A stretch of DNA of 64,000 bases, taken from NCBI GenBank assembly GCA_041906885.1, contig JAYRII010000015.1:15534-79533 (forward strand), read 5' to 3'. The stretch is from Candidatus Saccharimonadia bacterium. Lineage in GTDB: Bacteria > Patescibacteriota > Saccharimonadia > CAILAD01 > CAZGYV01. Both the position numbers and the translations under genes were made by a program. The notes under the pieces were generated by a model that ran no database searches, was not told where the DNA came from, and was given only the letters and a program-made list of their open reading frames with translations. Positions 10,904-62,715 of the stretch are shown in pieces; within the stretch, counting starts at the first letter, position 1, and the number at the start of each line of letters is the position of its first letter.

Positions 10904-13618
10904 TTAAGAGGATTTTGAATCAGTTATGGCCGGCTGTTTTTGCTGGTTACTAATTGGTATCGCGGGCTGAGGACTGGGCGGTGCGGGTTGATTTGGTTGT
11001 GGTTGAGATTGTACTAACTGGCTCGGTGGTTCGGTTTTAGCCACTGGATTTGACTGAGGCTGATTGGCATTCGAGGGGCCTGCAGCCTGCTGGCTAGCCG
11101 AAACTGGCTTAGACGAACTAGCTGGGCTAATTGACAAGCTTTCAAAGATAGTTTTTTCTACCTCTCCCTTAGGCCGGCCATATTTCGTGCGTGATAGCTC
11201 TTTGACGGCAGCTTGTAATTTAAGATCAGCCTGACCGATTTTTGGCAGCATTTTGATCGAAAAAGGCGTTAAAACTGCTCCTTTTGAGATAATGCGCATA
11301 GCTGCACGATGGTTTGGCATGTTGATAATATCGGCGGCATCAAATGTCGGCGTCAGCTGTTTGGCCAAAAATTCCGCATCCTCTGGTCCAACACGGTAGC
11401 TTAGAATTGAGCCAACATTACCAAAAACGGCATCACGAATTTGCTCGTTCAATTGACCAATAAACTGGTTAGCTACAATCAGGCTCAAGTGATATTTACG
11501 AGCTTCTGATAAAATAGTGGCGAAACTATCGGTCGAAAAATTCTGAAACTCATCGACATACAAACTAAAGTCGCGGCGCTGCTCCTCTGGTGTATCAGAT
11601 CTACTCATCGCAGCCGCTTGAATTTTGATCACAAAAATCATACCCAAAAGTTTAGAATTCAATTCGCCAACCAGTCCCTTGCTCAAATTGACAATCAGGA
11701 TTTTACCCTCATCCATGACCTGGCGCAAATTGAGCGAGCTTTGATGTTGGCCAATAATATTACGCAAGATTTCATTCTGCGCAAAAGCACCAAACTTTGA
11801 TACAAACCAGCCCAACATCTCACTCTTATGATAATCACTGGTTTGAGCCATTTCCTTGAGCCAAAAATCTTGCACAATTGGGTCGGTGACGTACTTAAAC
11901 TTCTGCTTCAAGAATTCATTATCTGTAAAAATCTTTGGCACCTCGATAAATGTTGCGCCATTCGGGTCAGACATCAAAGTCAAAGTCGCATTACGATACC
12001 ATTGTTCAAAACGAGGACCGATTATGCCCTGCTGTTGCGGGTCGTAAAGCTTATAAAGCATCGAGATAGTTTCTTGGATGATAAAGTCTTTCTGCTCCGG
12101 GCGATCAAATTGCAAGATATTCAAGCCGAGCGGCATCCCAGTATCTGCCGGATTAAAATAAATCACATCCTCTGCCCTGTGGGCTGGCACTTTAGCAAGT
12201 AGTTCTTCGGCCGTGTCGCCATGTGGATCGATAAAGCATAATCCCTTACCCATTGCCATATCTTGGACAATCAGATTATGTAAAATAGTTGACTTACCAG
12301 TACCAGTTTGACCAACGATATAAACATGACGCCGTCTGTCATCGTCAGCCAGCTTCACCACTCTGTCCTGACCATGAAACAAATTACTACCAAAGATCAA
12401 CCCCTCATTACTCAGTTGCTGAGGCGCCGCAACCTCACGCACAGCCGAACGATCAACCGGAGTAGAGCTTTCGGCTGTCTTGCTTGGTAGATGAAATATA
12501 GTAGCTAGTTCGGTGGCATTTAAGACGACTTTGTTCCACCAGGCTGGGAAGATACGAAAAATAAAGTTGGTTGCCAGAGTTTGTGGATATTGAGATTGCA
12601 TCAATTTAAAACCATTTGAGCCCGGTAGATTAAGCTGGCTAAAACCAGCCATCATATCTTGAACCAAAGTTTTAGAGCGAACCTGATCATGTGAGCTGGC
12701 AATCAGCCGAATCATTGTTTCGTAAGTTGGTATCGAAGCCTTCTCTTCAATTAATTGACTTTTTTTCTGATCAATTGCATCTGGCGGATTATAGCCAGCC
12801 GCTTGCTTGTCAGATGATTCTGCCTGTGGCGATTTATAGGTCATTTTAGCCACATCCATTGGCGTAAAGCCTTTACCGGCATGTTTTTTATCGCCCGGAT
12901 GCAGTAATTTCTTAGCGGCCGCTCGTGCACGTTTGTTCCAGCGCTTTGAAGAAGATCGAATCAAAATTTGAAGTGCTACTCCTTCACCATCATGCAGCTG
13001 CGACATACTAGTTGTAATGCCACTAACAGCATCAAATTCACTAACTTTATAAGTCTGGATCGGATACCAGCTGTCGTTGGTCATAACCAGCTCACCGCCA
13101 GCCACTACCCCAATTTTACCCAAGTGTGAGAAAATATTGTGATCTTCACGCCGCTCAACCTGGATGTCTGGATAGGATGAATTAAGAGCTTTTTCAATAG
13201 TCGATAGTAAGCTAACAGGCACTACTACATAAAAGTAAATTTGACCACCCGTGGCTATCATCTCACAGGCTAAATGTTTTCGTCCGAAAAACCAACGTTT
13301 AAACGTACTCAAAGCCAACATATGATCCCAAAAACCCTTTGTCTTAGTCGCTCCAATGACTGCCATTATATTAAAAAATCCTTCAGCCCGAGCAATATTT
13401 TCCTTGATTAGCTCACGATTATCACGCATGGTCGCTTCATTAGCCTCAGCCGGTGGCAGCTTTACCAGCAAAGGTACCATTTTGAGACTACGCTCTAGCT
13501 CCTTCGCGCGCCGAAAAATTCGTCTAAAAATAAAGAAGGCTGCTACTGCCACAACCAAGACGGCTAGTACTAAAAGTACTATCATAAACATCGTAAATGA
13601 TAGATTTTCTTCGCCCAT
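10904..13618 (-). CDS. FtsK/HerA-superfamily P-loop ATPase most similar to type IV coupling proteins (TraD/TrwB/VirD4-like). It has an N-terminal TM helix and a Q/P-rich C-terminal tail.
   Basis: Walker A region HVYIVGQTGTGKST....CFIDPHGD; a VDEFQNF Walker B followed by SLIVANQFIGQL, in the DEFxxL...QSxxQL pattern of VirD4/TrwB; 904 aa. Confidence 0.6.
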   Translation of the reverse strand: MGEENLSFTMFMIVLLVLAVLVVAVAAFFIFRRIFRRAKELERSLKMVPLLVKLPPAEANEATMRDNRELIKENIARAEGFFNIMAVIGATKTKGFWDHMLALSTFKRWFFGRKHLACEMIATGGQIYFYVVVPVSLLSTIEKALNSSYPDIQVERREDHNIFSHLGKIGVVAGGELVMTNDSWYPIQTYKVSEFDAVSGITTSMSQLHDGEGVALQILIRSSSKRWNKRARAAAKKLLHPGDKKHAGKGFTPMDVAKMTYKSPQAESSDKQAAGYNPPDAIDQKKSQLIEEKASIPTYETMIRLIASSHDQVRSKTLVQDMMAGFSQLNLPGSNGFKLMQSQYPQTLATNFIFRIFPAWWNKVVLNATELATIFHLPSKTAESSTPVDRSAVREVAAPQQLSNEGLIFGSNLFHGQDRVVKLADDDRRRHVYIVGQTGTGKSTILHNLIVQDMAMGKGLCFIDPHGDTAEELLAKVPAHRAEDVIYFNPADTGMPLGLNILQFDRPEQKDFIIQETISMLYKLYDPQQQGIIGPRFEQWYRNATLTLMSDPNGATFIEVPKIFTDNEFLKQKFKYVTDPIVQDFWLKEMAQTSDYHKSEMLGWFVSKFGAFAQNEILRNIIGQHQSSLNLRQVMDEGKILIVNLSKGLVGELNSKLLGMIFVIKIQAAAMSRSDTPEEQRRDFSLYVDEFQNFSTDSFATILSEARKYHLSLIVANQFIGQLNEQIRDAVFGNVGSILSYRVGPEDAEFLAKQLTPTFDAADIINMPNHRAAMRIISKGAVLTPFSIKMLPKIGQADLKLQAAVKELSRTKYGRPKGEVEKTIFESLSISPASSSKPVSASQQAAGPSNANQPQSNPVAKTEPPSQLVQSQPQPNQPAPPSPQPAIPISNQQKQPAITDSKSS

Positions 13619-13660: not shown

Positions 13661-14074
13661 TTACGAATCATCAACATCGACGTTAAACCTTTTTTTGAGG
13701 TATTCCTTACTCAGCGATTCCTCCTGTTGTTCCTCAGCAAAGGGATCATTGGCGGTAGATTTTATTATATTTTCAGCCCTATCAACCCACTCTTTCTCGA
13801 TCACATCAACATCTTCGGCTGGCAGATCATCCTCGGGTATGGTCTGACTAGGCACCTGGGCAGATGGGGTAACAGCTGTTACGGGTAAATTGGTTGCCTG
13901 ACCACCAGTAGTAGTGGTCGGCGAACTTGGTCGAGCGACCGTCTCCTCTGGGCCAGCTACTTTCTTGCTGGTCATTAATTCAGGCTTTTTTTGATCGGGC
14001 GTGGAGGCCGACGGTTGCTCTACTTTTGACTGTTCGGGGTTTTGACTGGGCTGCTGTAGACTACTAGGTTGCAT
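13661..14074 (-). CDS. Hypothetical low-complexity (P/S/T/Q-rich, acidic C-terminus) protein.
   Basis: A 137-aa ORF co-directional with and upstream of the coupling-ATPase gene; no recognisable domain. Confidence 0.3.
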   Translation of the reverse strand: MQPSSLQQPSQNPEQSKVEQPSASTPDQKKPELMTSKKVAGPEETVARPSSPTTTTGGQATNLPVTAVTPSAQVPSQTIPEDDLPAEDVDVIEKEWVDRAENIIKSTANDPFAEEQQEESLSKEYLKKRFNVDVDDS

Positions 14075-15671: not shown

Positions 15672-18446
15672 CTATCTTTGAGTCAGATTTTTCAGATTGT
15701 TAAGCTTCTTGAGATTACTAATAATTGCGTCTAGGTTTTTACTGATGTCCTCTGATTTTGGCTGCGGACCAACATCCATCACTACCCTAAAAGCCATACT
15801 CTTGCGCTCAGTCGCGCTCAGCTTTTGGTCAGCAAAATCATTTAAAAAATTCGCCTTGATAACAAAGGAGTTTTTGAGTAAAGCACGCTTAATATCCTGC
15901 CAAAAAACATTATTGTCTATCTCAATTGCAATATCGCGAACGACAGGGGAGTAGGGAAGTAAATCATCAATTTTAGCCAGCTTATTATTGTCTAATATTA
16001 ACCTTATATTAACCTCACAAAAGCTTATTTCTGAAACAATTTTTAGTTCATTTAATAGACTAGGTCTGACCTGTCCATATTGCCCTATTACCTTGTCGTC
16101 CAGCTTGATGATAGCAGATCGCCCGGATATGAATTGTTTAATATCATTGGCATCAAAGCTAAAATCAAGCTGGCAAATTTCTGCTATGGCATCAATCTGC
16201 CCTTTAAGCCTAAGCAAGCTATCATTTCCAAACACTGTTAGTCCGAGTTGCCATTGCTCATCCGGTAAGCTACCGCTCTTGTTCGGTTTGTAAACTCTTG
16301 AGACCTCAAAAAACTCAAAGCTATCGCGATAGCTCTGATTGTTTGCAACCACCTGAAGATGACTTGGTAATAGAGATGTTCGTAAATATTGCTGCTCGCG
16401 CGACAATGGATTTAAGATCTCCAGATGACTATCCGTGTCCAGTTCAGTAGTTTTAATTATGTCTTCTCCAATAAACGAATAAGTCATTACCTCAAACAAG
16501 CCGCGTGCTACCAAAAATTTTTTTATTTCCAATATTCTTGGTAGTAACTGATGCTCGTCCGTTGCCATTGGTGGTAATAGTGGGGTAGTAGTAGGTAGCT
16601 TGTCATAGCCGATAATCTTAATAACTTCTTCAATCAAATCCTCCTCTAAGGCCACATCAGTTCGCCACCACGGAGTCGTCACTGCCAAAAGATGATTAAA
16701 ACTCTCAACATAACGGCGAGCACCCTTATAACCAGGATTATTAATAAAATAGCTCAGCGGCGATTCGATTACCGCTGGCTTAGCCATTTTACGTACCTGG
16801 CCGTTTTTATACTCATACTGAGCTGCATGAATTACTTTATTTTGTCCCATATAAATACCAACATGACCAATATCAGATCGTTCTTTTTGCAATTTTTTAT
16901 CAGTCCAATGGCCAGATCGAAACACTAAATCACCTGGTTTTAAATTAACTTCCTCAACCATCACTCCCGATTGAAATTGCGCATAAGCAGTCTCGCCAAT
17001 CCTTTTACCGATTAAGCTATAGATGTAGCTCGTCAGATATGAACAATCAAAGGCTTCAACACCATGCTGCTTAAAATTCGCCCCCCAAATATACGGCTTA
17101 CCAAGGTGTTTACTCAATTCCTTAGTCAGGCTAAAATGCTCGACTTCAAAACCAAGCCGCTTTAAGCCATTTACAACTCGTCTCTCATCAATCCTCATGC
17201 CCAGTACACGTTCAGCCCGACGCAAACGCAAACCAATGTGTTGCACCCAAGGCCAATCATATAATTGATCGAAGGGGCCATCAATTATCTCAGCCTGACA
17301 AATCTCTTGAAATAGTTGAATAAGACGGGGCAGTGCAATCGGTGGCAAGGACAAGGGGAGTGAACGCTCGAATCTAGCCGATGCTTCAGTTCGAAGACCG
17401 TGCCTTAAGGCTGTCTTGCGGACCAACTCTCGATCGAAATTAGCAACTTCTAGAATTATTTTGGTTGTCGACCGATCAACTTCAGTCGTCTGACCACCAA
17501 TTACTCCAGCCAGACCAATCGCACCAGACTCATCAGCAATCACAAGATCATCAGCCGTTAGCTTACGGCTAGCACCATCAAGTGTTGTAAGTTTTTCGGC
17601 AGGGGAGCCGCGCCTAACCTCTAGTCGCCCAGAAATTTTTTCCAAGTCATAGGCATGCGAAGGCTGGCCAGTCTCGAGCGCGACAAAGTTGGTAATATCT
17701 ACAACAGGGCTAATGCTCCGCAAGCCATTAGCTTCTAAGTTATCCACAAGCCACTGCGGTGAAACTATATTATTTTTCACGGCTAGTTTCACGGACATAA
17801 AACGCCTACACTCGCCTGTTTTCTTGACATTTACGTTTTCTATTGTTTTATATTGTAATGCTGGACTAGCTGGGATTTTGACACTTTGATCGAAATCGCC
17901 CGTGTATCCACTCGCCTCCCGCGCCAAACCGATCAAACTAAGTTGGTCCCACCTATTTGGCTGCGTCTTTATGTCCAGCTGATCCCCTTCAGGCCATATG
18001 TCGCACAATATTGTACCCGGCGCTATCGAGTCGTCGAGTAGCAATAGCCCGCTGTGATCGTCTGACAAACCCAGCTCGGCTGGCGAGCAAAGCATACCAG
18101 CTGACTCAACGCCGCGGATCTGAGCTGCTTTTATTGTCGTGCCATTGGGCAATTTAGAGCCAACTTGGGCCAAAACAACTATCTGATTGGTGGCCACATT
18201 CGGTGCACCGCAGACTATTTGATTATGCCTGGACTGCCCATAATCAACTGACACTAGCTTTAAGCGGTCTGCGTTGGGATGTTTTTTGACTGCAGTGATT
18301 TTAGCTGCAATGATTTTTTCGTCAAATTTATTCGAGCTTAGAATTTGCTCAACTTCAACTTCAGTCCGCTCAAGTCCTGCTACCATTTGATCGGTTGAGA
18401 GTTTTTTAGAAAGATAATGATTGATTGATTTGACGGATACTTTCAT
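15672..18446 (-). CDS. pheT: Phenylalanine--tRNA ligase beta subunit carrying an inserted NlpC/P60 (C40 peptidase) domain.
   Basis: N-terminal tRNA-binding domain (KHPNADRLKL), B3/4, a B5 motif LKRLGFEV and WRTDVALEEDLIEEVIKIIGYDKLP, and C-terminal FDX-ACB, all standard for PheT. Between the two B5 halves lie ~135 aa carrying YIWGANF..FDCSYLTSYIY..PGDLVF..HVGIYMG..VIHAA, a complete C40 Cys-His-His set. Confidence 0.85.
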   Translation of the reverse strand: MKVSVKSINHYLSKKLSTDQMVAGLERTEVEVEQILSSNKFDEKIIAAKITAVKKHPNADRLKLVSVDYGQSRHNQIVCGAPNVATNQIVVLAQVGSKLPNGTTIKAAQIRGVESAGMLCSPAELGLSDDHSGLLLLDDSIAPGTILCDIWPEGDQLDIKTQPNRWDQLSLIGLAREASGYTGDFDQSVKIPASPALQYKTIENVNVKKTGECRRFMSVKLAVKNNIVSPQWLVDNLEANGLRSISPVVDITNFVALETGQPSHAYDLEKISGRLEVRRGSPAEKLTTLDGASRKLTADDLVIADESGAIGLAGVIGGQTTEVDRSTTKIILEVANFDRELVRKTALRHGLRTEASARFERSLPLSLPPIALPRLIQLFQEICQAEIIDGPFDQLYDWPWVQHIGLRLRRAERVLGMRIDERRVVNGLKRLGFEVEHFSLTKELSKHLGKPYIWGANFKQHGVEAFDCSYLTSYIYSLIGKRIGETAYAQFQSGVMVEEVNLKPGDLVFRSGHWTDKKLQKERSDIGHVGIYMGQNKVIHAAQYEYKNGQVRKMAKPAVIESPLSYFINNPGYKGARRYVESFNHLLAVTTPWWRTDVALEEDLIEEVIKIIGYDKLPTTTPLLPPMATDEHQLLPRILEIKKFLVARGLFEVMTYSFIGEDIIKTTELDTDSHLEILNPLSREQQYLRTSLLPSHLQVVANNQSYRDSFEFFEVSRVYKPNKSGSLPDEQWQLGLTVFGNDSLLRLKGQIDAIAEICQLDFSFDANDIKQFISGRSAIIKLDDKVIGQYGQVRPSLLNELKIVSEISFCEVNIRLILDNNKLAKIDDLLPYSPVVRDIAIEIDNNVFWQDIKRALLKNSFVIKANFLNDFADQKLSATERKSMAFRVVMDVGPQPKSEDISKNLDAIISNLKKLNNLKNLTQR

Positions 18447-18447
18447 C

Positions 18448-19440
18448 TTAGAATTGCTCCATATATGTCAAATTTGGTCGCCAAAGCTGCCTTAAATCGG
18501 TCAGATTGTACTTAACCACAGCTATACGCTCGGCCCCGAAACCAAAGGCGAAAGCCTGATATTTTTCCGAGTCAACACCCCCATTAGCAAGTACATTCGG
18601 ATGCACCATACCAGCGCCCAGCAGCTCCAGCCACTCCCCCCGGTACTTGGCATCAATCTCAACCGAAGGCTCAGTGTATGGGAAATAATTCGGCCGCAAT
18701 CTAATTTCAGTGTCACTCCCCAAGATACCCTGCACCACACGCAATAATGTCCCTTTGAGATCAGCCATAGTGATATTTTCACCCACCACCAAACCTTCAA
18801 CTTGCGTAAAACTCCAAGAGTGAGTTGAATCCTCATCTTCATTGCGAAACACCTTACCAGGTGCGATTATTTGAAATGGAGGTTGGTTCTCTTCCATAAA
18901 TTTAACTTGCATCGAAGAAGTATGTGTTCTTGGCAAAATCGCTAGTTTGTTCTTGTCGCCTTTAATATAGAAAGTATCTTGCATGTCACGAGCTGGATGG
19001 TGCTCGGGCAAATTCAAGGCACCAAAATTATACCAGTCATCGACGATCTCAGGCCCATCGACGATCGCAAACCCCAACTCCGTAAAGATCTGGTAAACTA
19101 GTGCTAGTACACTACTTATTGGGTGCAAATGACCGACACCGAGACCAAGTCCGGGCTTAGTAACATCTATCGAAGGGTATTTCATGCCCCTCATAAGATC
19201 TTTATTCTTATCCTTAATCTTACTCTCGATAGTTTGCTTGAACTGATTTATAGTTTGGCCGGCCAATGGCTTGTCTTGAGCTGCCAAACCCCTAAGCTCT
19301 TCCGTTGCAGCTGCCAGGAGGCTTTTACGGCCCAAATACATTACTCTAAGAGATTCTAAGTCTTCACTTGAGTACACCTGATCAATTGATTGCAGAGCTT
19401 CCGGCAATAATGAATTAAGGGTCTCGAAGCTCTTTTTCAT
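18448..19440 (-). CDS. pheS: Phenylalanine--tRNA ligase alpha subunit
   Basis: A 330-aa ORF with class II aaRS motifs (..FRNEDED.THSW.FTQVEG.., GFGFGAERIA). Confidence 0.9.
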   Translation of the reverse strand: MKKSFETLNSLLPEALQSIDQVYSSEDLESLRVMYLGRKSLLAAATEELRGLAAQDKPLAGQTINQFKQTIESKIKDKNKDLMRGMKYPSIDVTKPGLGLGVGHLHPISSVLALVYQIFTELGFAIVDGPEIVDDWYNFGALNLPEHHPARDMQDTFYIKGDKNKLAILPRTHTSSMQVKFMEENQPPFQIIAPGKVFRNEDEDSTHSWSFTQVEGLVVGENITMADLKGTLLRVVQGILGSDTEIRLRPNYFPYTEPSVEIDAKYRGEWLELLGAGMVHPNVLANGGVDSEKYQAFAFGFGAERIAVVKYNLTDLRQLWRPNLTYMEQF

Positions 19441-19820
19441 GCTCTTTTGGTCCTAAAGTAAAATTCTACTATCATTACTGTCAGCGTAATTAAAATTACA
19501 TCTCTCAGGTTTAAACTATCTAGGCTTTTGAGGGCGAGCATTCCAACGGCAGCAAATGAGATAAGAAAAGCCGTTCGTAAGCTAGCTATTAGAGCTTTTT
19601 GGGATTTTTCACGGTATTTAGTTTGACGTAGTTTCATCAGAAAGCTTCCGATGGTGATTATACCCATCAAAAACAGCATCAAAGCTATAAACCAAAAAGT
19701 CACTCCAGCAGGCCCGATGTCCTTAGGTGCCGAGAAAACGACCGTGGTGATAGTTCCTACACCTGCTAAAGCTGTAACTAGTACGATGACAGATAATATT
19801 ACTGTTGTTTTGTGATTCAT
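19437..19820 (-). CDS. Hypothetical small integral membrane protein (4 predicted TM helices), first gene of the pheST operon.
   Basis: A 127-aa hydrophobic ORF whose end overlaps the pheS start by 4 nt. Confidence 0.5.
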   Translation of the reverse strand: MNHKTTVILSVIVLVTALAGVGTITTVVFSAPKDIGPAGVTFWFIALMLFLMGIITIGSFLMKLRQTKYREKSQKALIASLRTAFLISFAAVGMLALKSLDSLNLRDVILITLTVMIVEFYFRTKRA

Positions 19821-20019
19821 TTTTATTGTAACTAACCTGTAATATCAACTAATTATCTCAAAATTTATCAATTATCACAATATTTAGGTTAGTTTTCCAC
19901 AGTTGTACTAATTTACTACTCTATTTTGAATACATTATTTATTTTTTTGAGTTTAAATGACCTATCGAACACTTTTATTATTCTTTTTATCTTTTGGCAT
20001 GTACGGGATAGGTTTGTTC

Positions 20020-20060
20020 GGTTTTTCAAAAATAAAACACCCTATTTGGCATTAGGGTGT
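20020..20060 (-). terminator. Intrinsic terminator (hairpin ACACCCTA-TTTGGCAT-TAGGGTGT, followed by a U-run on the minus strand).
   Basis: A perfect 8-bp stem at 20037-20060, with a T-rich tract 20024-20036 when read on the minus strand. Confidence 0.6.
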
Positions 20061-20073
20061 TGAAAAAATATCA

Positions 20074-20106
20074 CTAAAAAGAGAAAAGGGCCGAATCCAT
20101 CCGGCC
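20074..20106 (-). terminator. Intrinsic terminator (GGCCGGATGGATTCGGCCC followed by CUUUUCUCUUUUU on the minus strand).
   Basis: A GC-rich 5-6 bp stem at 20088-20106 with a U-rich tail. Confidence 0.5.
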
Positions 20107-20480
20107 TGTCAAAAAGTTAAGCAACTTAAGTGCCGCGGAAACGGCCCGCTTTAGTCACCTTGGAGGCTCCAAAGTAACTAATTTTGGGTCATCGAACGTG
20201 AAAAATAGTTTACCATATGGTGGCTAACAAGTCAGTTCGATAGCTTCCCTACCAGTCGTGCGGCAAGAAGTCAGCAGTTTACACCCTAAAATCGTAGATC
20301 TTAAGGCGCAAGAAGCTGACCACTTCCGGCGGATGATAAGTTAATGCTCTTAATTGACAAGAAACCTACTTAGCATACTTCGCTAAGTAAGGTCGTTTCT
20401 CCTAGAACAGTAGGGAAAATCCAGACTAGAAACAAGGGGGGACGTTTCGATAGTCCGGGTTTCCCCTGCCGTTTTTTTTA
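20107..20480 (-). ncRNA. Unclassified structured RNA candidate (~370 nt) in an 830-bp gene-free interval. Neither strand nor class is resolved.
   Basis: There is no ORF. It contains several perfect hairpins (e.g. CCUUACUUAGC-GAAGUAU-GCUAAGUAGG) and duplicated GCAAGAAG(U)C(A)G motifs. Two tandem minus-strand terminators lie at its low-coordinate end, and a G-rich hairpin plus T8 lies at 20447-20480 on the plus strand. I could match no tmRNA, SRP, T-box or RNase P consensus. Confidence 0.25.
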
Positions 20481-20650
20481 TCGCCTTTATAAAGAGTTCA
20501 GGCACTCTTGAGAAGTAGACGACCTTTTTTATTTTCGCGTTTTTATTTTATTTTGGTTTTAAAGTGCTGTTTTTTAACTTGTAAGGTATTATAGCATACC
20601 GCTTGGGCTTATGTCAATAAGCTTATGCTTTTTATTCTTAAAAACCCCAC

Positions 20651-21436
20651 TCAATAACTTAGTTTGCTCCATTCAACAACTGAGACCGGTTTTCTAGCGA
20701 TTATAAATACTCCGGAATAAGCACCATGTCGAGTTATTTCTAGCCTCAGATCGATCATCCCGAACTTTTGATAGATAAGTAGCAGTTTATTAAGGTCATA
20801 ATCATATATGTGCATGATTGGTTCTTTTAAGGGCTTCCCACGAGCCAGGTTAAGACCGTAGTGTACTGGTGGAAAATTATAATGTGCCAGCTGCAGACTA
20901 CGCTCGCCCCGAGACACGTGCGTGGCAAAGGTGTAGTGCAGGGCTGCCACACCACCAGGAAAGGTTTTTTCAAGCAAGCGTTGAGTTATTTTATACCCGT
21001 CAGATTTGGGAATGTGTTGCAATACTATATAAGAATGCACTAGATCATACTGTCTACCTGTGGTCATCTCCTGATCGGCAATACTGAAGCTAACCTTCGG
21101 CTTAAGCTTAGACGGTAAATTTGCCTCAGCTTCCTTGAGCATCGACGACGACACATCAATCCCCTTCACCGCTTGGCAATAATCGGCTAAGGCCAGCGTG
21201 ATGCGTCCGACGCCACAGCCAAAATCAAGACAAGCGTGAGGCTTAAAACTCTTGCCCACCATATTATAAATCACTTGAAAGAGAGCCTTGGCGTGTGACT
21301 TACCAGAGTCGAAAAATTCTTTCTTGACCTCGGCCGTTATGTTTGGCCTTAAAAACTTAGGATCTGACAAAACTCCAAAATACGGGTTAGATTTACCCCA
21401 CACTTCCCAATCTATGTCAGTTTGTCGTCGACTCAC
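20651..21436 (-). CDS. Class I SAM-dependent methyltransferase
   Basis: Motif I LDFGCGVGRITLAL; 261 aa. Confidence 0.7.
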   Translation of the reverse strand: MSRRQTDIDWEVWGKSNPYFGVLSDPKFLRPNITAEVKKEFFDSGKSHAKALFQVIYNMVGKSFKPHACLDFGCGVGRITLALADYCQAVKGIDVSSSMLKEAEANLPSKLKPKVSFSIADQEMTTGRQYDLVHSYIVLQHIPKSDGYKITQRLLEKTFPGGVAALHYTFATHVSRGERSLQLAHYNFPPVHYGLNLARGKPLKEPIMHIYDYDLNKLLLIYQKFGMIDLRLEITRHGAYSGVFIIARKPVSVVEWSKLSY

Positions 21437-21461: not shown

Positions 21462-22442
21462 CTAAAGCAGTCCGATGTGATTTTTTACTTGCTCGAGCTT
21501 TTTATTGGCAATGGCGGAAGCTTTTTGGTTGCCTAGTGCGATAGTTCTTAGTAGATTCGGTTCATCTGTTCGATAATCACGGAATTTTTCTTGCAGCTTT
21601 TCAAGCTTAGTTGCCACCAGCTCACCTAAATCTTGTTTAAACTGGCCATAGCCAACACCAACATAATCACTTTCGAGCTGCTTGATTGATTTGCCACTGA
21701 AGCTTGAGAATATTTCGAGTAAATTTGTTATGGCTGGCTTGCTATCTGTCGCCTCAACCTCACTACCAGAATCAGTTACAGCTCGTTTAAATTTCTTGAT
21801 AGTGTCGTCTTTACTCTCATCAAGCGCCACATAACTGGCGGTCGAGCCGCTTTTACTCATCTTGGTAGTCGGGTCATCAAGGCTCATAATCCGTCGTGAG
21901 ACGTCACCTAAGACAGGTTTGGGTAGCCTAAAGGTCTCGCCGTAAAGATTATTAAACCGACTGGCGATATCGCGCGTCAGCTCTATATGCTGCACCTGAT
22001 CATCACCGACCGGCACTTCATCCGTGTCATAAAGCAAAATATCAGCCGTCATCAAGACCGGATAATCATATAAGCCGACCAACTGCCCCTCAGCGCCGCC
22101 CCCGCCAGCTTTGTCTTTAAATTGCGTCATACGATTGAGCTCGCCCAAGGTAGCATAATTATTCAATATCCAAGCCAGCTCGCTGTGAGCCGGAATCTGC
22201 GACTGCACGCAAATGATCGACTTCTTCGGATCAATCCCGACTGTTAAGAACCACGCCACCAGATCTAAAGTGCGACGCTTGAGCTCAATCGGGTCTTGCC
22301 GGGCAGTGATGGCATGGAGATTAGCCACGAAAAAGATACTTTCTTGATTTTCTTGTCCTTCTGGCCAGCGGCGCATCGCCCCTAGATAATTGCCAATCGT
22401 CATATCTCCAGACGGCTTGATGCCCGATAATACTCGCTTCAT
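21462..22442 (-). CDS. trpS: Tryptophan--tRNA ligase
   Basis: Class I signatures (..PSGDMTIGNYLGA.., KMSKS); 326 aa. Confidence 0.9.
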   Translation of the reverse strand: MKRVLSGIKPSGDMTIGNYLGAMRRWPEGQENQESIFFVANLHAITARQDPIELKRRTLDLVAWFLTVGIDPKKSIICVQSQIPAHSELAWILNNYATLGELNRMTQFKDKAGGGGAEGQLVGLYDYPVLMTADILLYDTDEVPVGDDQVQHIELTRDIASRFNNLYGETFRLPKPVLGDVSRRIMSLDDPTTKMSKSGSTASYVALDESKDDTIKKFKRAVTDSGSEVEATDSKPAITNLLEIFSSFSGKSIKQLESDYVGVGYGQFKQDLGELVATKLEKLQEKFRDYRTDEPNLLRTIALGNQKASAIANKKLEQVKNHIGLL

Positions 22443-26716: not shown

Positions 26717-29554
26717 CTACAATAATCTATCAAAATTGATTTGCGACTGGCCGCTCGAACGAAAATTCTTATTCTTGATACCACTGACAACTTGTTCGAT
26801 TTTACTTAAAATTTTAGTATGATCAATTTTTGTGATCGTTGCGGTGATGTCATTTTCTACAAAGTGAAGACTAATTTTAGAAACTGCTTGTCCGCTTGTT
26901 TTTTCCCAAGCTAAAGCATAAATGGCCATTTGTATATTATCTTTAATGCGTTTATCAGCCTCTTTTTGGGTCGCAATTTGACTAGTTTTAAAGTCACGAA
27001 TCTCGACTTTTTGACCTCTAATATAAACCGCATCATAGCGGCCACTAATTCGTACTTTTAGCTTTGGCAGATCAAGGCTAAAATCTTGTTCGACTAGCGA
27101 CGGGAAATCCTTTTTGGCTTCCTCTCGAATGAAATAATCGCTAATAACCTTCTTACCCATCTCGAACCGAGCCAATTCATGATTGCGAGAGACAAATCCC
27201 TCACTGACCCAAGCGTTTTCAAATACTTCAACTAAATTTGCCGATGATACCGGGTTATGATTGATTTTTGCTCGATTATAATACTCAATTGCTCGGTGTA
27301 TGGCAGAGCCGTAAGCTAAAGCGTGAAACGGGCCTCTGGGCATATTTAAAACATGGAAAAACCAAAATTCTTTTGGATCTTTTAAATAATCTTCAATCTG
27401 ATGTGGCGTCAAATGCAACCATCCCTGGTGATAAAGCTGACTTGTCATGTCATAATCAGGCACTTGGCCTTTTGCGAATGAATCAATTTTACTAACTAAA
27501 CCACTGCCTTTTTCAGGCTGAACAAGATTAACATCATCCATCGTCTCGATGACAAACTGGGAAATTTTGCGCAGTCGCTTGCCGCCATGATCATAACCAG
27601 CCGACAAATATAGCTCTTTTTTAGCTCTAGTCAATCCAACATAAAATAGTCTACGCTCTTCACTAATATGCCGGTCATTTGCTACCGGAATTTCAATGAG
27701 TCCATCCGGGATTTTAATCTTTTCGGCCATACGCCGCGACGGAAAAACCTGATCGACCAAATCAATCATAAAGACGATATCAAATTCGAGTCCTTTGGCC
27801 TTATGAATCGTTAAAACCTGGACATCATTTGTATCTAGTGGTGAATCTGATGTAGATATATCAACATTAGTACTCCTAATCTCATCAAGATACTGCCAAA
27901 GACTATGAATATTTGGATCGATTGCGATCGTTTCAAATTCTCTGACCATTTCAAAAAATTCTGCCAGGTTTTGCACCTGGAAAGCGGCTTGATTATCAGC
28001 TTCTGCCTGCTCGACCAACCTTTTCAAATAGCCGTTATCATTAATAAACTTATAGATTAGCTCACCGGCCGTAAATTCACTCGAGATTGAACGATATTTC
28101 TTAATTTGCTCAATGATTGTTATAATATTATCATCAATATCTTGTTTAAAATTCAGGTATTCTTCAAATGACAGGTTGCGTCTTTTGACGACGGATGCTA
28201 GATCGGCTAAATTCGCCAAATGGTAGTTAAAAATATCTCCTGCCAACAGCCCAAAGAATGCTTGCGAGTCATTCGGATCATTAATAACACTGATAAAATT
28301 TACAATTGTCTTAATTTCCGGCCGTTCAAATAAACCCTCACTTTTACTCTGCTGGCTGGCCACTCCCACCTTGCCTAAGGCATGCATCATAGCTTTGGCC
28401 TGTTTATTCTTGCGGATCAGAATCGCGATCTGATTTGGAGAAACACCTTGGTCAATTAGCTGTCGGACTTTTTCTGCAACGGCCCCTACTTCAAGTAGAG
28501 TGTTATCATGCTGAGTAAATTCCGGGTACTTACCCTGCTTATGATTTGCTGCTGTTAGTCGCTTAATAATTTTGCTAGCGACTTCGAGACGATTCGGATT
28601 ATTGTATTGAATCAGTTTGTAGCTAGCATCAAGGATGGCCTGAGTCGATCGGTAATTTTTTGTCAGTACAATCTGTTTAGCATCAGGGTATTCTAGATTA
28701 AAATTTAAAATGTTGGCGATTGCCGCACCCCGAAAACGATAGATTGACTGATCATCATCACCAACCGCCATTAGATTTTTGTGTCGTTCTGCCAGCATAG
28801 ACATCAGTTTATTTTGAGCCATATTAGTATCCTGAAACTCATCGACCAAAATATATTTAAATAATTCCTGATATTGCTTCAAGATATTTGGTCTCTTCTC
28901 GAATAGCTCCAGCGTCAAATAAATCTGGTCTCCGAAATCAAGCCGACCTTGCTCGCGTGAAGTTTGCATATACAACTCATAAACCCTGGCTAGTTCGGCT
29001 ACTCTTGTGGCATTAAGCTGGTCCTCATCTTCGCTAGCTGATTTTACCAGGCCAGCAGCAAACTGCTTGTAACGCTTAGGTGAGACATACTCATCCTTGA
29101 GGCGTGAAAAATGGGACAACATTGCCTCGATAAATTTATGAGGATTACCTAATGGCGCGTAATATTCCAGATTCATATGGTCGATCAATTGGCGCAAAAA
29201 TATTATCTGCTGAAATGTCGTCATGACTTTAAAATCACTAGTCAGTCCAATCTCTAAGGCATTATCGCGCAATATTCTGTCGCCTAAGGCGTGAAAAGTC
29301 TCGATATTAGTTCTAACGAAGCCATATGGTACCAGGCGGTCAACCCGCTCCTCCATCTCACGAGCCGCTTTATCGGTGAACGTCAAAGCTAGAATTTCCT
29401 CCGGACTGGCCCTTTTCTCTTGGATGAGCCAAGCTATCCGACGGGTGATGACAGTTGTCTTGCCAGTGCCAGCTCCGGCCACAACCAAAACTGGGCCATC
29501 ACCATACGTCATGGCACTCGCTTGCTCTCGATTCAATCCCTCTCGCAAATTCAT
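26717..29554 (-). CDS. AddA/PcrA-like helicase-nuclease: UvrD-type SF1 helicase with a C-terminal PD-(D/E)xK (RecB/Cas4-like) nuclease.
   Basis: N-terminal GAGTGKTTVI Walker A and UvrD motifs; C-terminal GRYDAVY...EIRDFKTS...QMAIYALA nuclease motifs; 945 aa. Confidence 0.8.
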   Translation of the reverse strand: MNLREGLNREQASAMTYGDGPVLVVAGAGTGKTTVITRRIAWLIQEKRASPEEILALTFTDKAAREMEERVDRLVPYGFVRTNIETFHALGDRILRDNALEIGLTSDFKVMTTFQQIIFLRQLIDHMNLEYYAPLGNPHKFIEAMLSHFSRLKDEYVSPKRYKQFAAGLVKSASEDEDQLNATRVAELARVYELYMQTSREQGRLDFGDQIYLTLELFEKRPNILKQYQELFKYILVDEFQDTNMAQNKLMSMLAERHKNLMAVGDDDQSIYRFRGAAIANILNFNLEYPDAKQIVLTKNYRSTQAILDASYKLIQYNNPNRLEVASKIIKRLTAANHKQGKYPEFTQHDNTLLEVGAVAEKVRQLIDQGVSPNQIAILIRKNKQAKAMMHALGKVGVASQQSKSEGLFERPEIKTIVNFISVINDPNDSQAFFGLLAGDIFNYHLANLADLASVVKRRNLSFEEYLNFKQDIDDNIITIIEQIKKYRSISSEFTAGELIYKFINDNGYLKRLVEQAEADNQAAFQVQNLAEFFEMVREFETIAIDPNIHSLWQYLDEIRSTNVDISTSDSPLDTNDVQVLTIHKAKGLEFDIVFMIDLVDQVFPSRRMAEKIKIPDGLIEIPVANDRHISEERRLFYVGLTRAKKELYLSAGYDHGGKRLRKISQFVIETMDDVNLVQPEKGSGLVSKIDSFAKGQVPDYDMTSQLYHQGWLHLTPHQIEDYLKDPKEFWFFHVLNMPRGPFHALAYGSAIHRAIEYYNRAKINHNPVSSANLVEVFENAWVSEGFVSRNHELARFEMGKKVISDYFIREEAKKDFPSLVEQDFSLDLPKLKVRISGRYDAVYIRGQKVEIRDFKTSQIATQKEADKRIKDNIQMAIYALAWEKTSGQAVSKISLHFVENDITATITKIDHTKILSKIEQVVSGIKNKNFRSSGQSQINFDRLL

Positions 29555-39803: not shown

Positions 39804-39849
39804 CAATCAAAAACGACCAAGCGCAGAGGCTTGGGCGTTTTTGGTGGAG
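39804..39849. repeat. Diverged third copy of the same element (shares the ATCAAAAACGACC head and the TTTTTGGTGGAG tail).
   Basis: The terminal ~12 nt match on both ends, but the middle has diverged. Confidence 0.4.
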
Positions 39850-40451
39850 CTGCAGGGAATTGCACCCTGGTCCATTTAAGGCTATCAATATAGCATCTAC
39901 AAGCTTAGTCAGCTTGGGAGTGGAGTTTAAGGAGTAAATAAAGCTTAAAACTGACCAAAAACTTTGCTCACTTCCCCTTCATTTTGGCTTAGGTAAAGGT
40001 CAAAGGGTAACCAAAACCGCAATCAGATAAATATGGCGCCCGTACTTCCCTATCTGACGTCAGGAGCTCGAGCGGCTATCGCGTATTACGCAAAAGCTGG
40101 TGCAAAAGCAGGCATGGCAAAAGCCGCGCGTACTTTGCTTACAAGTGATTTGGCACTTATAGTTGGTGGTGGTTTAACGCCCCTACCATGGCGGCTTGCA
40201 GCTACATGTCAAGTTCCTAATGTCGAAGCTAGTCAGCCCCATGTCGAGAATCGCTTCATTTCCGTTAAAAAGACAAGCTTTTTAACTTCAAATTACGCGA
40301 AACCTCTCCTCTTCAAATCAACCTCTATCGTCAAATTATTTTACAATTTATTGGTTATTCGGAAGAAATAATTTGCCAGCTGCGAGCTTGATTTGCTAAA
40401 AACACTTCTTTCAAGAAGCACCTGATATTCTACCACAAAAACGGCCATTTT

Positions 40452-41339: not shown

Positions 41340-42359
41340 ATGAGCAAATTGAAGATAAACATGATTTCAGAGTCAGCTGGCGGCGTAAAAGGTCATGGTG
41401 TCCACACTGCTTTCGTCGAAACAGTCGACGCCATTGCCAAGCACAAAGATATTGACCTTAAGGTCAATAGCCGGCGGCCAGCCGACATCAATCACATCCA
41501 GACAGTCGGGCTATATAGCCTGTCGATCTTGATTTTTGGCAAGGGTAAAAAAGTCATCTCGGTCCATGTCATTCCAGATTCATTCGTTGGGTCGCTGGCC
41601 GGTGCAAAATATTGGTATGGTCTAGCTAAAGTCTATCTAAAGTATTTTTACAATAAAGCCGACCTACTCATAGCTGTCTCGGATGAAGTCAAAGACAATC
41701 TGGTGGAACAGCTGCGTGTCAAACCGCCGATCAAGACGATCTTTAATAGTATTGATAGCTCTAGATACCATGTCCAAGCCGGTGAAAAGCATAAATTACG
41801 CCAACAAATGGGCCTTAAAGATAACGCCACCATCATAGTCAGTAGTGGCCAGATTCAACCTCGCAAACGATTTGATGTTTTCTTAAAGCTAGCTAAATCA
41901 ATGCCAGACTATCAATTCATCTGGGTTGGTGGTATTCCGTTTAAGAAGTTAGGAGCAGAATATAAAAAAATGCAGAAGCTGATCAACTCCGCACCTGATA
42001 ATCTCAAAGTCACCGGCGTAATCGAGCACGACGAAGTAAGATCATACTATGCCATTGCTGATGTCTTTATCTTACCCTCCGAGCAGGAAAATCACCCGTT
42101 GGCTGTGATTGAGGCGGCTGCTAGCGGCCTGCCGATAATTTTACGCGACCTAGCATTGTATGATTCGTCATTTGGTGACTTGGTGATTAAAGGTGACGAC
42201 AAGCAGTTTGCCGCCATCATCAAAAAAGTTACCAGTGATCGTAATTTCCGCCAAACCGCTCAGGATAACTCGGCCATACTAGCCGACAAATTTGATAGCC
42301 AAACGCTAGCTGGAGAACTGATCAATGAATACAAAAAGCTAGCCGGAGCAATAAAATGA
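41340..42359 (+). CDS. Glycosyltransferase family 4
   Basis: GT-B C-terminal motif (..EQENHPLAVIEAAASGLPII..). Confidence 0.75.
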   Translation: MSKLKINMISESAGGVKGHGVHTAFVETVDAIAKHKDIDLKVNSRRPADINHIQTVGLYSLSILIFGKGKKVISVHVIPDSFVGSLAGAKYWYGLAKVYLKYFYNKADLLIAVSDEVKDNLVEQLRVKPPIKTIFNSIDSSRYHVQAGEKHKLRQQMGLKDNATIIVSSGQIQPRKRFDVFLKLAKSMPDYQFIWVGGIPFKKLGAEYKKMQKLINSAPDNLKVTGVIEHDEVRSYYAIADVFILPSEQENHPLAVIEAAASGLPIILRDLALYDSSFGDLVIKGDDKQFAAIIKKVTSDRNFRQTAQDNSAILADKFDSQTLAGELINEYKKLAGAIK

Positions 42360-58675: not shown

Positions 58676-59309
58676 AGCCTGATTACCTAGCTATAAGCCG
58701 AATTCTGTATCCCGATGTATCGGGACGGCGATCATCTATCTTACTCTTTGCCCTACATCATCCGAGCAAATTGTATGTCAACTTAATAAAAGTCGATCAT
58801 GCGACATACCCATTCCAGGCGAGTAGCCTGGCACCTAATAAATGGTGGCGGGCCCATAGTCTTGCAGCCGACGGGGTTTACCACCAGCAGGCAGTCACCT
58901 GCCGCTGCTGTGAGCTCTTACCTCACTCTTTTCACCCTTACCCAGCACCTTAAATCGCTCAACAAAAGCCTGCTTACTTTTTAGTTCAACCAGCACTCTA
59001 CCATGATGCTTTAATTTTTGCTCACACTTCTTAAGCTAAGGCTTTTGTCTAAAGAGCCTTATAACGTACAAGCTATCGAGCCGAGCGAAACTTTGGTAAC
59101 AATTCTTTGCACATGATTGTGTTGGTAATATTTGTTTATGTATATACATAAACAAATTTTAACATAGCGATTTAAGGTGCTGGGCGGTATAGTCTCTGTG
59201 GCACTTTCCCTAGGGTCACCCCCGGTTGCCGTTAGCAACCGTCGTACTCTACGCTGTTCGGACTTTCCTCCCCGACAAGTCGGGGCGATCACCCACTAGC
59301 TAATCAGAC
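58676..59309 (-). ncRNA. rnpB: RNase P RNA, bacterial type A, with a ~230-nt insertion in P12.
   Basis: On the minus strand: P4/CR-I GGGGAGGAAAGUCCGAAC, CR-II/III AAGGGUGAAAAGAGUGAGGUAAGAGCUCAC, CR-V ACAGAAUUCGGCUUAU, and a P1 pairing CUGAUUAGCUAG / CUAGGUAAUCAG. Between CCGCCCAGCACC (59177-59188) and GGUGCUGGG (58941-58949) lies an AT-rich 227-nt segment closed by a perfect 19-bp duplex. A TATAAT box sits 7 nt upstream of the 5' end. Confidence 0.85.
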
Positions 59310-60548: not shown

Positions 60549-60956
60549 CTAAACTAGCCCCGTCTTAAGATGAGCCCGCAACCTATCGCCCACTCGCCGC
60601 AGCTCTTGGTGGCTAGCAGGCGCCGCTTTAGTATGATCAAGATCAGCGATGGCATTCATCGGTATAACATGAACATGAACGTGTGGCACCTCGAAGCCAA
60701 CCACTGCTAGACCAACACGAACCGGATTAAACACCTCTTGGGCTAATACAGACATTTGCTTAACCACCCTCATAACCGCATCATAGTCAGCCGTCTGGAG
60801 GTCATAAAATCTATCAACCTGGACTTTTGGAATTACCAGCATATGTCCTGGGTTGTGCGGCTCCAGGGTCAAAATCACGATTGTCCGCTCGTCCTCATAG
60901 ATTATTTCTGATGGTAATTCGCGCTCAATTATACGAGTAAATACACTGGCTTTCAT
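60549..60956 (-). CDS. HIT-family nucleotide hydrolase
   Basis: Histidine triad HVHVHVIP; 135 aa. Confidence 0.85.
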   Translation of the reverse strand: MKASVFTRIIERELPSEIIYEDERTIVILTLEPHNPGHMLVIPKVQVDRFYDLQTADYDAVMRVVKQMSVLAQEVFNPVRVGLAVVGFEVPHVHVHVIPMNAIADLDHTKAAPASHQELRRVGDRLRAHLKTGLV

Positions 60957-62639: not shown

Positions 62640-62715
62640 TGGTCAGGGTGAGAGGACTCGAACCTCCGGTCTCTGGACCCCCAGCCCAGCGCTTTACCAA
62701 CTAAGCTACACCCTG
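62640..62715 (-). tRNA. tRNA-Pro (anticodon GGG), CCA encoded.
   Basis: Hand-folded cloverleaf: acceptor CAGGGTG/CACCCTG, D-arm GCTT-AGTTGGTA-AAGC, anticodon stem CTGGG/TCCAG with loop CTGGGGG (G37), T-arm GGAGG-TTCGAGT-CCTCT, and A73-CCA. Confidence 0.85.

Follow-up and report, generated by a model that had tools for sequence, protein, structure and literature searches.

The intergenic interval and its predicted transcript

The window analysed here, a 64,000-nt stretch of contig JAYRII010000015.1 from a Candidatus Saccharimonadia bacterium, harbors an 830-bp interval (19821-20650) in which no credible open reading frame (ORF) was found, with only ORFs of 32 to 45 aa occurring in it. The interval is flanked by a methyltransferase gene on one side and by a membrane-protein gene, pheS and pheT on the other (Table 1), and it is predicted to contain a minus-strand gene for a structured noncoding RNA (ncRNA), which is the subject of this analysis. 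Here the window has its longest run free of any stop-to-stop frame of ≥90 codons, 809 bp against 468 bp for the runner-up, in line with the preliminary description of this DNA, which had singled the interval out as the longest non-coding stretch. The G+C content is 41-49% across about 20050-20500 and 20-31% in the flanks, with the spacer 19821-20026, which lies outside the RNA, having 20-23%.

The predicted gene carries a perfect sigma-70 promoter (12/12 in the consensus scan, plus the TG of an extended -10 box), and the predicted transcription start lies near 20582-20580, 6 to 8 nt past the -10 box. The -35 box, an ATAAGC-type repeat in the spacer and the TGnTATA(A/C)T element are kept in all lineages of relatives described below. 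The repeat, a tandem ATAAGC(N)2AAGC between the -35 and -10 boxes (20594-20611, minus strand), occupies the same position in all homologs, and extra copies of TAAGC were observed just upstream of the promoter (AGCATAAGCTTATTGACATAAGC); together, these repeats may form an operator for some regulator. A promoter type common to this gene and the tmRNA or RNase P genes of the window was looked for and not seen.

At the 3′ end, the preliminary description had reported two consecutive minus-strand terminators. Both hairpins are present in the window (20106-20089 and 20061-20036), and the second behaves as a normal terminator in all lineages; a hairpin and U-run of differing sequence, equivalent to 20061-20036, follows the RNA in each of them. 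The first is not conserved as a hairpin: its sequence (GGCCGGAUGGAUUCGGCC, 20106-20089) is the 3′ strand of the helix P7 and covaries with the distant P7 5′ strand, column 46 of the P7 alignment flipping between C and G together with distant column 17 (CG:7, GC:7), while column 62, the partner that the local hairpin would require, is an invariant G. A U-rich tract (20087-20076) lies directly 3′ of P7 in the window, and P7 with this tract may itself terminate transcription; if transcription stops at the second terminator, the predicted RNA extends to about 20027. In most lineages the 3′ tail of the RNA is GUAACCA, followed by a separate terminator, with P7 lacking the U-tract in homolog groups B and C, whilst the subgroup of the window has the U-tract and the second terminator. 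A G-rich hairpin with a T8 run on the plus strand (20447-20480) had also been read as a terminator; it is not one, being P2 (its 5′ half) and the preceding A-run read in antisense.

Table 1. Features of the interval and of its flanking genes, with positions in the window
Feature	Position	Strand	Remarks
RNA-gene promoter	20588-20617	-	TTGACA (20617-20612), 18-nt spacer, extended -10 box TGcTATAAT (20596-20588)
Predicted RNA, ~505 nt	20078-20582	-	from the start after the -10 box to the U-tract after P7; both ends inferred
A-rich 5′ leader (..GCACUUUAAAACCAAAAUAAAAUAAAAACGCGAAAAUAAAAAA)	20524-20582	-	unpaired in all per-sequence folds
P1 hairpin (GCCU/AGGC)	20483-20503	-	conserved motif CUGAACUCU, kept while the stem changes
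P2, 65-nt hairpin	20407-20471	-	apical loop GUCCCCCCUU (20443-20434; C-run 20441-20436)
J2/3 (UCUAGGAG) and variable P3	20331-20406	-	P3 hairpin 20394-20363; closing GGA/UCC (20402-20400 with 20333-20331)
P4, long interrupted helix with variable tip	20261-20330	-	core GGUCAGC (20321-20315) / GCUGACU (20275-20269)
J4/5 linker CACGACUGGUAGGGAAGC	20244-20260	-	family consensus CCG-NACGR-NUGGYNGGGAAGY
P5, variable hairpin	20186-20249	-	closed by GGG/CCC and UAUCGAAC/GUUCGAUG; per-sequence folds, weaker support
P6 hairpin	20151-20181	-	UAGUUACUUUGG AGCCU CCAAGGUGACUA
P7, 60-nt 3′ helix	20088-20147	-	GGGCCG..UCCG..CGGC / GCCG..UGGA..CGGCCC; apical AAGUU-GCUU-AACUU hairpin
Intrinsic terminator	20027-20061	-	hairpin 20061-20036; AACACCCUA..UAGGGUGUU followed by UUAUUUUU; consensus scan
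Promoter of the membrane-protein-pheS-pheT operon	19852-19880	-	TTGTGA-17-TGaGATAAT; consensus scan; outside the RNA
127-aa membrane-protein gene	19437-19820	-	one flank of the interval; overlaps pheS
pheS	18448-19440	-	
pheT	15672-18446	-	after pheS
Class I S-adenosylmethionine methyltransferase gene	20651-21436	-	other flank of the interval
trpS	21462-22442		upstream of the methyltransferase gene; TIGR00233, 313 bits

Segment-wise folding of 16 homologs yielded the same architecture each time, in the order leader-P0-P1-P2-J2/3-P3-P4-J4/5-P5-P6-P7. The A-rich leader is 45 to 60 nt long across these homologs, with a nearly invariant core of (C/G)(A/U)(C/U)UUAAAAC(A/C)AAAA..AAAA, and P0 is a small pyrimidine-rich hairpin predicted from per-sequence folds only. 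The stem of P1 varies (GCCU/AGGC, GCCCUG/CAGGGC, GCCCG/CGGGC, GGUCCU/AGGACC and AGCUCU/AGAGCU), with the CUGAWCUCU motif at this position being kept in all lineages. P2 is a hairpin of 61 to 65 nt in the 16 homologs, with an apical loop of (A)ACCCCCUU, and its loop sequence CCCCCUUG is invariant in 17 homologs and flanked by the hairpin in all lineages. The P3 hairpin is present in all homologs with varying sequence and length, and appeared ‘terminator-like’ in the consensus scan; its closing pairs (GGR/YCC in the family) change from A-U to G-C in 6 of the 16 sequences. In the J4/5 linker, GGGAA is invariant (16/16) and a flanking CCG/UGG mini-stem is kept, the UGG being lost in L036, one of the two most distant relatives. 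A CGGGCC...GGCCC segment enclosing the P7 loop UAGUUnCnUAAC is kept in all lineages.

Further possible pairings within the RNA were inspected. J4/5 (AGGGAAGC, 20244-20252, minus strand; GGGGAAGC elsewhere) repeats the 5′ strand of P2 (GGGGAAAC, 20459-20467, minus strand; GGGGAAGC elsewhere), and a switch pairing J4/5 with the P2 3′ strand is possible, with no covariation supporting it. Pairing of the 3′ tail AACCA with AUGGU of J4/5, and of the P2 loop with P6, is likewise possible, with no compensatory change at either. The preliminary description had reported a duplicated GCAAGAAG(U)C(A)G motif; the two copies do occur, yet they are the two complementary strands of P4, each followed by UUCUUGC, and they are found in the closest relatives only. 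A mini-ORF of 7 to 8 codons ending in Pro-Pro-stop was seen after the leader in two subgroups (MKSAIPP*, MPHANKPP* and MPHIKPP*), its carriers being L019 (within 8890-9323), L034 (within 7218-7684) and L035 (within 8690-9146). It was rejected as a general feature, being absent from the subgroup of the window and from two others, and it may be a chance occurrence or a lineage-specific add-on.

Conservation and covariation among relatives

The homologs of PheS showed identities of 90, 89, 79, 72 and 72%, followed by values of about 60% or less, and the few named ones belong to Saccharibacteria or Patescibacteria. The contigs of relatives were fetched by exact-protein look-ups and by a DNA pattern of the most conserved block of the RNA, whilst a single-protein locus search of genome contigs with PheS gave no confirmed relatives. 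The loci obtained comprise nine of the same species as the window (L001-9) and others with PheS identities of 89% (L010-12), 79% (L013-15), 72% (L016 and L017-18), 61% (L019), 59% (L021), 57% (L033), 56% (L034), 54% (L035) and 53% (L036-37). The gene order RmuC - trpS - gap of 620 to 1500 bp - (membrane protein) - pheS - pheT was observed in all of them. A homolog of the RNA, 400 to 530 nt in length, was present in every lineage fetched, down to 53% PheS identity, and a profile hidden Markov model search (nhmmer) placed exactly one copy at each locus, always directly after trpS. In L034, guaA stands between the RNA and the pheS operon, with the RNA still next to trpS.

Searched against GTDB, the conserved-block pattern was found in eight species-representative genomes, all of them metagenome-assembled genomes of Saccharibacteria, Saccharimonadia or Patescibacteria, and in metagenomes it gave one real contig and one chance match (L032). 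A relaxed pattern run over viral contigs recovered no copies of the RNA, only two chance matches. From these searches, the RNA is a single-copy, chromosomal element that is not phage-borne.

Among close relatives, the sequence of the RNA is more conserved than the neighboring essential aminoacyl-tRNA synthetase (aaRS) genes. Nucleotide identities with the window for the RNA, pheS and trpS are 0.92, 0.85 and 0.78 in L010; 0.84, 0.73 and 0.75 in L013; and 0.75, 0.68 and 0.73 in L016, respectively, and P2 and P7 are 94-98% identical in close relatives where the pheS DNA is 68-85% identical. The predicted structure is also far more stable than those of shuffled sequences: for 20030-20585, the minus strand gives a folding energy of -190.6 kcal/mol and z = -8.9, against z = -3.9 for the plus strand. 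The internal hairpins noticed in the preliminary description are real. Many G-U pairs are conserved, which would become A-C on the other strand, and this places the RNA on the minus strand.

The comparative alignment, which had been proposed as a check for covariation, supports this structure. RNAalifold on 16 sequences gave 64 pairs, 25 of which have compensatory changes. In a lightly curated alignment with 65 pairs, 94.6% of the cells are paired, compared with 35-48% when the partners are slid by 1 to 3 columns; 27 pairs changed on both sides, a number reached by none of 500 shuffles, and the covariation score was 0.367 versus 0.201. Double changes were found in three of the four pairs of P1. 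For P2, 94.2% of the cells are paired (about 50% in slid controls), with a covariation of 0.242 versus 0.135 in shuffles (0/500). Compensatory changes occur in 6/8 core pairs and 3/5 inner pairs of P4 and in 5/9 pairs of P6. P7 is 88.8% paired versus 27-49% in slid controls, with seven pairs showing double changes and CG/GC/UA flips at three pairs, and its covariance model matches every homolog (17 matches, 54-82 bits). Taken together, seven elements of the RNA, P1 to P7, are covarying helices as judged from the alignments, P0 being inferred only.

Could the interval, instead of an RNA gene, be a decayed gene, a gene for a small protein or a DNA element conserved as such? A 40-codon GTG ORF (20505-20383) does span the conserved core, and the spacer nearby has one DnaA-box-like site. 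The most conserved block is not coding, because it contains indels of 1, 2 and 3 nt between lineages; these break the frame of the core ORF, which was rejected as a coding sequence. The compensatory changes and the G-U asymmetry indicate selection on RNA structure, and the DnaA box is single and degenerate, with no switch in GC skew, so that a reading without an RNA is scarcely credible. The site itself (TGTGGAAAA) is located just upstream of the pheST-operon promoter (19852-19901, minus strand), with a perfect TGTGGATAA in L010, L019 and L021. As a replication origin the AT-rich spacer was rejected on the same grounds, and the site could be a regulatory DnaA site.

Several features of the surrounding genes were also recorded. 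The methyltransferase gene that separates the RNA from trpS is an indel, found in the species of the window and in L013-15 only and absent from L010, L016, L017 and every more distant relative; because of this distribution, the trpS-pheS gap is conserved independently of the methyltransferase. The membrane protein beside the RNA had no match in Pfam or NCBIfam. In PheT (924 aa), residues 449-553, located between the B3/4 and B5 domains, form an inserted NlpC/P60 peptidoglycan-hydrolase domain. The insertion occurs in almost all relatives (921-936 aa) and is missing from L033 (887 aa). A few genes downstream of pheT lie a VirD4-like coupling protein (10904-13618, minus strand; DUF8128, T4SS-DNA_transf and TrwB matches) and a YkuD L,D-transpeptidase, the whole block being syntenic across the clade. 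Many genes of the window have a TATAAT-like box 6 to 12 nt before the ATG and no Shine-Dalgarno (SD) sequence, for example those at 13661-14074, 26717-29554, 41340-42359 and 60549-60956, a sign that leaderless or SD-independent initiation may be widespread in this organism.

Comparison with known RNA families and leader RNAs

All 4227 families of Rfam 15 were scanned at E ≤ 10 with permissive filters on three divergent copies of the RNA (the window, L034 and L019), the window copy being taken as 19700-20800, and the whole window was also scanned at the Rfam gathering thresholds. On the three copies, only sub-threshold matches of the hairpin type were obtained (miRNA, sroB, CyaR and RsaE). On the window copy these scored 21 bits for mir-454 (threshold 60) and 21 for sroB (threshold 44), whilst the best match of the small RNA (sRNA) type on the divergent homologs was RsaE on the L034 copy, with 17 bits (gathering score 79). 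The scan with tmRNA, signal recognition particle (SRP), 6S, T-box and large-ncRNA models, another check proposed beforehand, found no match, and SRP, 6S, T-box and large ncRNAs do not fit the architecture of the RNA either. The preliminary description had likewise reported no T-box, tmRNA, SRP or RNase P signature.

A divergent tmRNA gene (ssrA) in the interval had been suspected from the apparent absence of tmRNA next to smpB. That absence was mistaken, as a complete tmRNA (RF00023) was detected at 39842-40240 on the minus strand, with 100.2 bits over the full model length; tmRNA was rejected for the interval, where neither the permissive scan of 19700-20800 nor ARAGORN found anything. RNase P RNA (RF00010/RF00011) was rejected in the same way, with no match in the interval and the genuine gene at 58678-59304 on the minus strand (202 bits), likewise at full model length. 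This RNase P RNA is 627 nt long versus the 367 positions of the model, i.e., it contains large insertions. Part of P2 (AACCCGGACUAUCG) may locally resemble the 3′ strand of RNase P P4, and the segment covaries as a local hairpin. A tRNA-Pro was located at 62643-62715 on the minus strand by Rfam, in agreement with ARAGORN.

Another housekeeping RNA so divergent and laden with insertions that Rfam misses it, such as SRP RNA (ffs, also suggested beforehand) or 6S RNA, would account for the strong promoter and the high conservation. Neither RNA was found in the 64-kb window, and the RNase P RNA demonstrates that large insertions do occur here. The RNA resembles 6S and SRP RNAs in its constitutive-looking promoter, its single copy and its conservation within the clade, but it is two to five times longer and possesses neither a rod with a central bubble nor a domain IV motif. 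SRP RNA (RF00169 and RF01854) was rejected on the lack of a match in all three copies and of a conserved GNRA-capped helix with the GGAA/AGCA pattern of domain IV in the consensus. For 6S RNA (RF00013) and its relatives, 6S-Flavo and Ms1 included, no covariance-model match was obtained either; at 400-530 nt, with 45-60 unpaired nt at the 5′ end and all helices local, the ends do not pair into a bubble-centered rod, and 6S RNA was rejected too. Since 64 kb is a small fraction of the genome, the absence of ffs and ssrS from it means little, and we regard a hidden housekeeping RNA as very unlikely.

From its position, the RNA might act in cis as a leader or attenuator, of the T-box type or another, and use terminators to control the membrane-protein-pheS-pheT operon. 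It lies upstream of an aaRS operon in the same orientation, ends in hairpins followed by U-tracts, and each strand of P7 could also fold locally; as in T-box leaders, the structured region stands upstream of pheST and a conserved UGG occurs in a linker. Nevertheless, no T-box (RF00230) match, T-box sequence, Stem I or specifier was found, and the UGG is lost in L036. Both conformations of P7 end in a G+C stem followed by U’s, which leaves no anti-terminator, and the analysis of P7 yielded no mutually exclusive terminator/anti-terminator pair. A 215-bp AT-rich spacer separates the RNA from the operon, with the operon promoter about 30 nt before the start codon of the membrane protein; its TGnGATAAT element is conserved about 25-30 nt before the start codon in distant lineages. 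Because the operon is served by a conserved promoter of its own, and because guaA separates the two in L034, where the RNA stays by trpS, the RNA is not a pheST leader, and a T-box was rejected on the same evidence. In groups B and C, GUAACCA and a separate terminator also come after the RNA. A cis-acting leader is therefore highly improbable, and the idea that the RNA regulates the pheST operon is left unsupported.

OLE, GOLLD, ROOL, raiA, HEARO and the other large ncRNAs of Rfam were rejected as well, none of them matching any of the three copies. The resemblance to these RNAs is a general one: all are longer than 400 nt, restricted to certain lineages, stand-alone and without a known function when discovered, and all have several covarying helices and stretches conserved above the neighboring proteins. 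Like OLE, the RNA described here is chromosomal, single-copy and adjacent to a gene for a small membrane protein. Unlike GOLLD and ROOL, it is not associated with phages or tRNAs, and unlike HEARO it has no IscB/TnpB gene nearby; it further differs from these orphan RNAs in its simpler fold, a chain of hairpins, in its Saccharibacteria host, and in having no sequence or structure match with them. The likenesses to OLE, GOLLD, ROOL and raiA, to RNAIII and RsaE (below), and to T-box leaders are functional or contextual analogies only.

Interpretation and possible functions

In view of these observations, we propose that the interval contains an independently transcribed, highly structured minus-strand ncRNA gene of ~505 nt, a member of a family not described before and found within a Saccharibacteria clade; we give this proposal a probability of roughly 0.78. 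The locus displays the general properties of an ncRNA gene: it has a promoter and a terminator of its own, it is conserved and covaries, it lacks coding potential, and it is predicted to be transcribed. The suggestion of a novel, lineage-specific structured RNA, one of several offered in the preliminary description, is the one that is well supported, by the conserved promoter, the conservation above the flanking aaRS genes and the covariation. The novelty lies at the level of the RNA family, and the mechanism may still resemble that of a known class. According to its transcriptome paper (10.1101/2022.03.25.485537), TM7x has no validated small RNAs.

A number of points weigh against this proposal. 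The existence of the transcript, its two ends and its abundance are predictions from sequence. The covariation draws on about 10 independent lineages with an effective sequence number of about 4; the shuffle control ignores phylogeny, so that relatedness can inflate the result; the P7 alignment was fitted to its own covariance model; and P5 and parts of P1 and P3 were aligned too poorly for pair tests. No pseudoknot or multi-helix junction is supported, which limits the ‘ornate’ character of the RNA, and the analysis yielded neither a protein partner nor an RNA target. G-rich ribosome-binding sites with which the C-rich loop could pair are few in the window. No description of this RNA was found in the literature, and neither the literature nor Rfam proves that none exists.

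As for function, the RNA would be abundant, stable and trans-acting, because its promoter is near-consensus and it is conserved above the essential aaRS genes. The chain of hairpins presents invariant single-stranded motifs, namely the A-rich 5′ tail, CUGAWCUCU at P1, the CCCCCUU loop of P2, GGGAAG in J4/5 and UAGUUnCnUAAC in P7. A chain of hairpins with invariant loops and linkers looks like a protein-binding or base-pairing design and not like a compact ribozyme, and hence a scaffold or decoy, or pairing through the loops, is favored. Tentatively, and at somewhat less than even odds, the RNA is proposed to act as a protein scaffold or decoy, with one or more proteins binding its invariant loops.

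Pairing through the loops would make the RNA a regulator of the RsaE/RoxS or RNAIII type, in which the C-rich loop of P2, and perhaps the pyrimidine motifs of P0 and P1, pair with G-rich segments of mRNAs and thereby control translation or decay. The invariant CCCCCUU apical loop on a long stable hairpin fits this, and the multi-hairpin body of ~500 nt recalls RNAIII. In common with RNAIII and RsaE/RoxS, the RNA has a stable hairpin capped by an invariant C-rich loop, as well as its own promoter and terminator, while it differs from them in having one C5 loop instead of repeated UCCC loops and no embedded ORF. RsaE is the sole weak echo of the sRNA type in Rfam, with a score so far under its threshold that the two are regarded as non-homologous. 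Moreover, likely SD targets are few, the genome being poor in SD sequences: the genes of the window mostly lack a G-rich SD sequence and many look leaderless, the window contains no other AAGGGGG, and only 2 of 57 genes have GGGG within 25 nt of the start. The complements of the other invariant motifs are not enriched in the window, and these motifs would be left unexplained. A base-pairing regulator is accordingly judged rather unlikely.

It was also considered that the RNA is catalytic and of a new kind, or that it is a subunit of a ribonucleoprotein (RNP) machine specific to these reduced-genome epibionts. Its length of 400-530 nt, its almost absolutely conserved blocks and its persistence in streamlined genomes are features that RNAs with demanding functions typically show. 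The secondary structure, on the other hand, is a chain of hairpins without supported pseudoknots or multi-way junctions, and no conserved neighboring gene stands out as a protein partner, which makes this explanation decidedly improbable.

Saccharibacteria and other bacteria of the candidate phyla radiation have tiny, densely coded genomes, and a 0.5-kb RNA gene kept there at a fixed position, with blocks conserved above the adjacent essential tRNA synthetase genes, suggests an important function. Few large structured RNAs of unknown function have been described from bacteria, and these have repeatedly led to new biochemistry. For the present RNA a structural model is at hand, its invariant loops can be mutated, and its relatives provide a basis for searches with covariance models. 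It is unlikely, though conceivable, that it is the founding member of a new class of large RNP-forming or catalytic RNAs specific to Saccharibacteria and kept in their minimal genomes for an essential function, for instance in translation, RNA metabolism or the epibiotic interaction; if that were true, its standing would be comparable to that of OLE, tmRNA or 6S RNA when they were first found.

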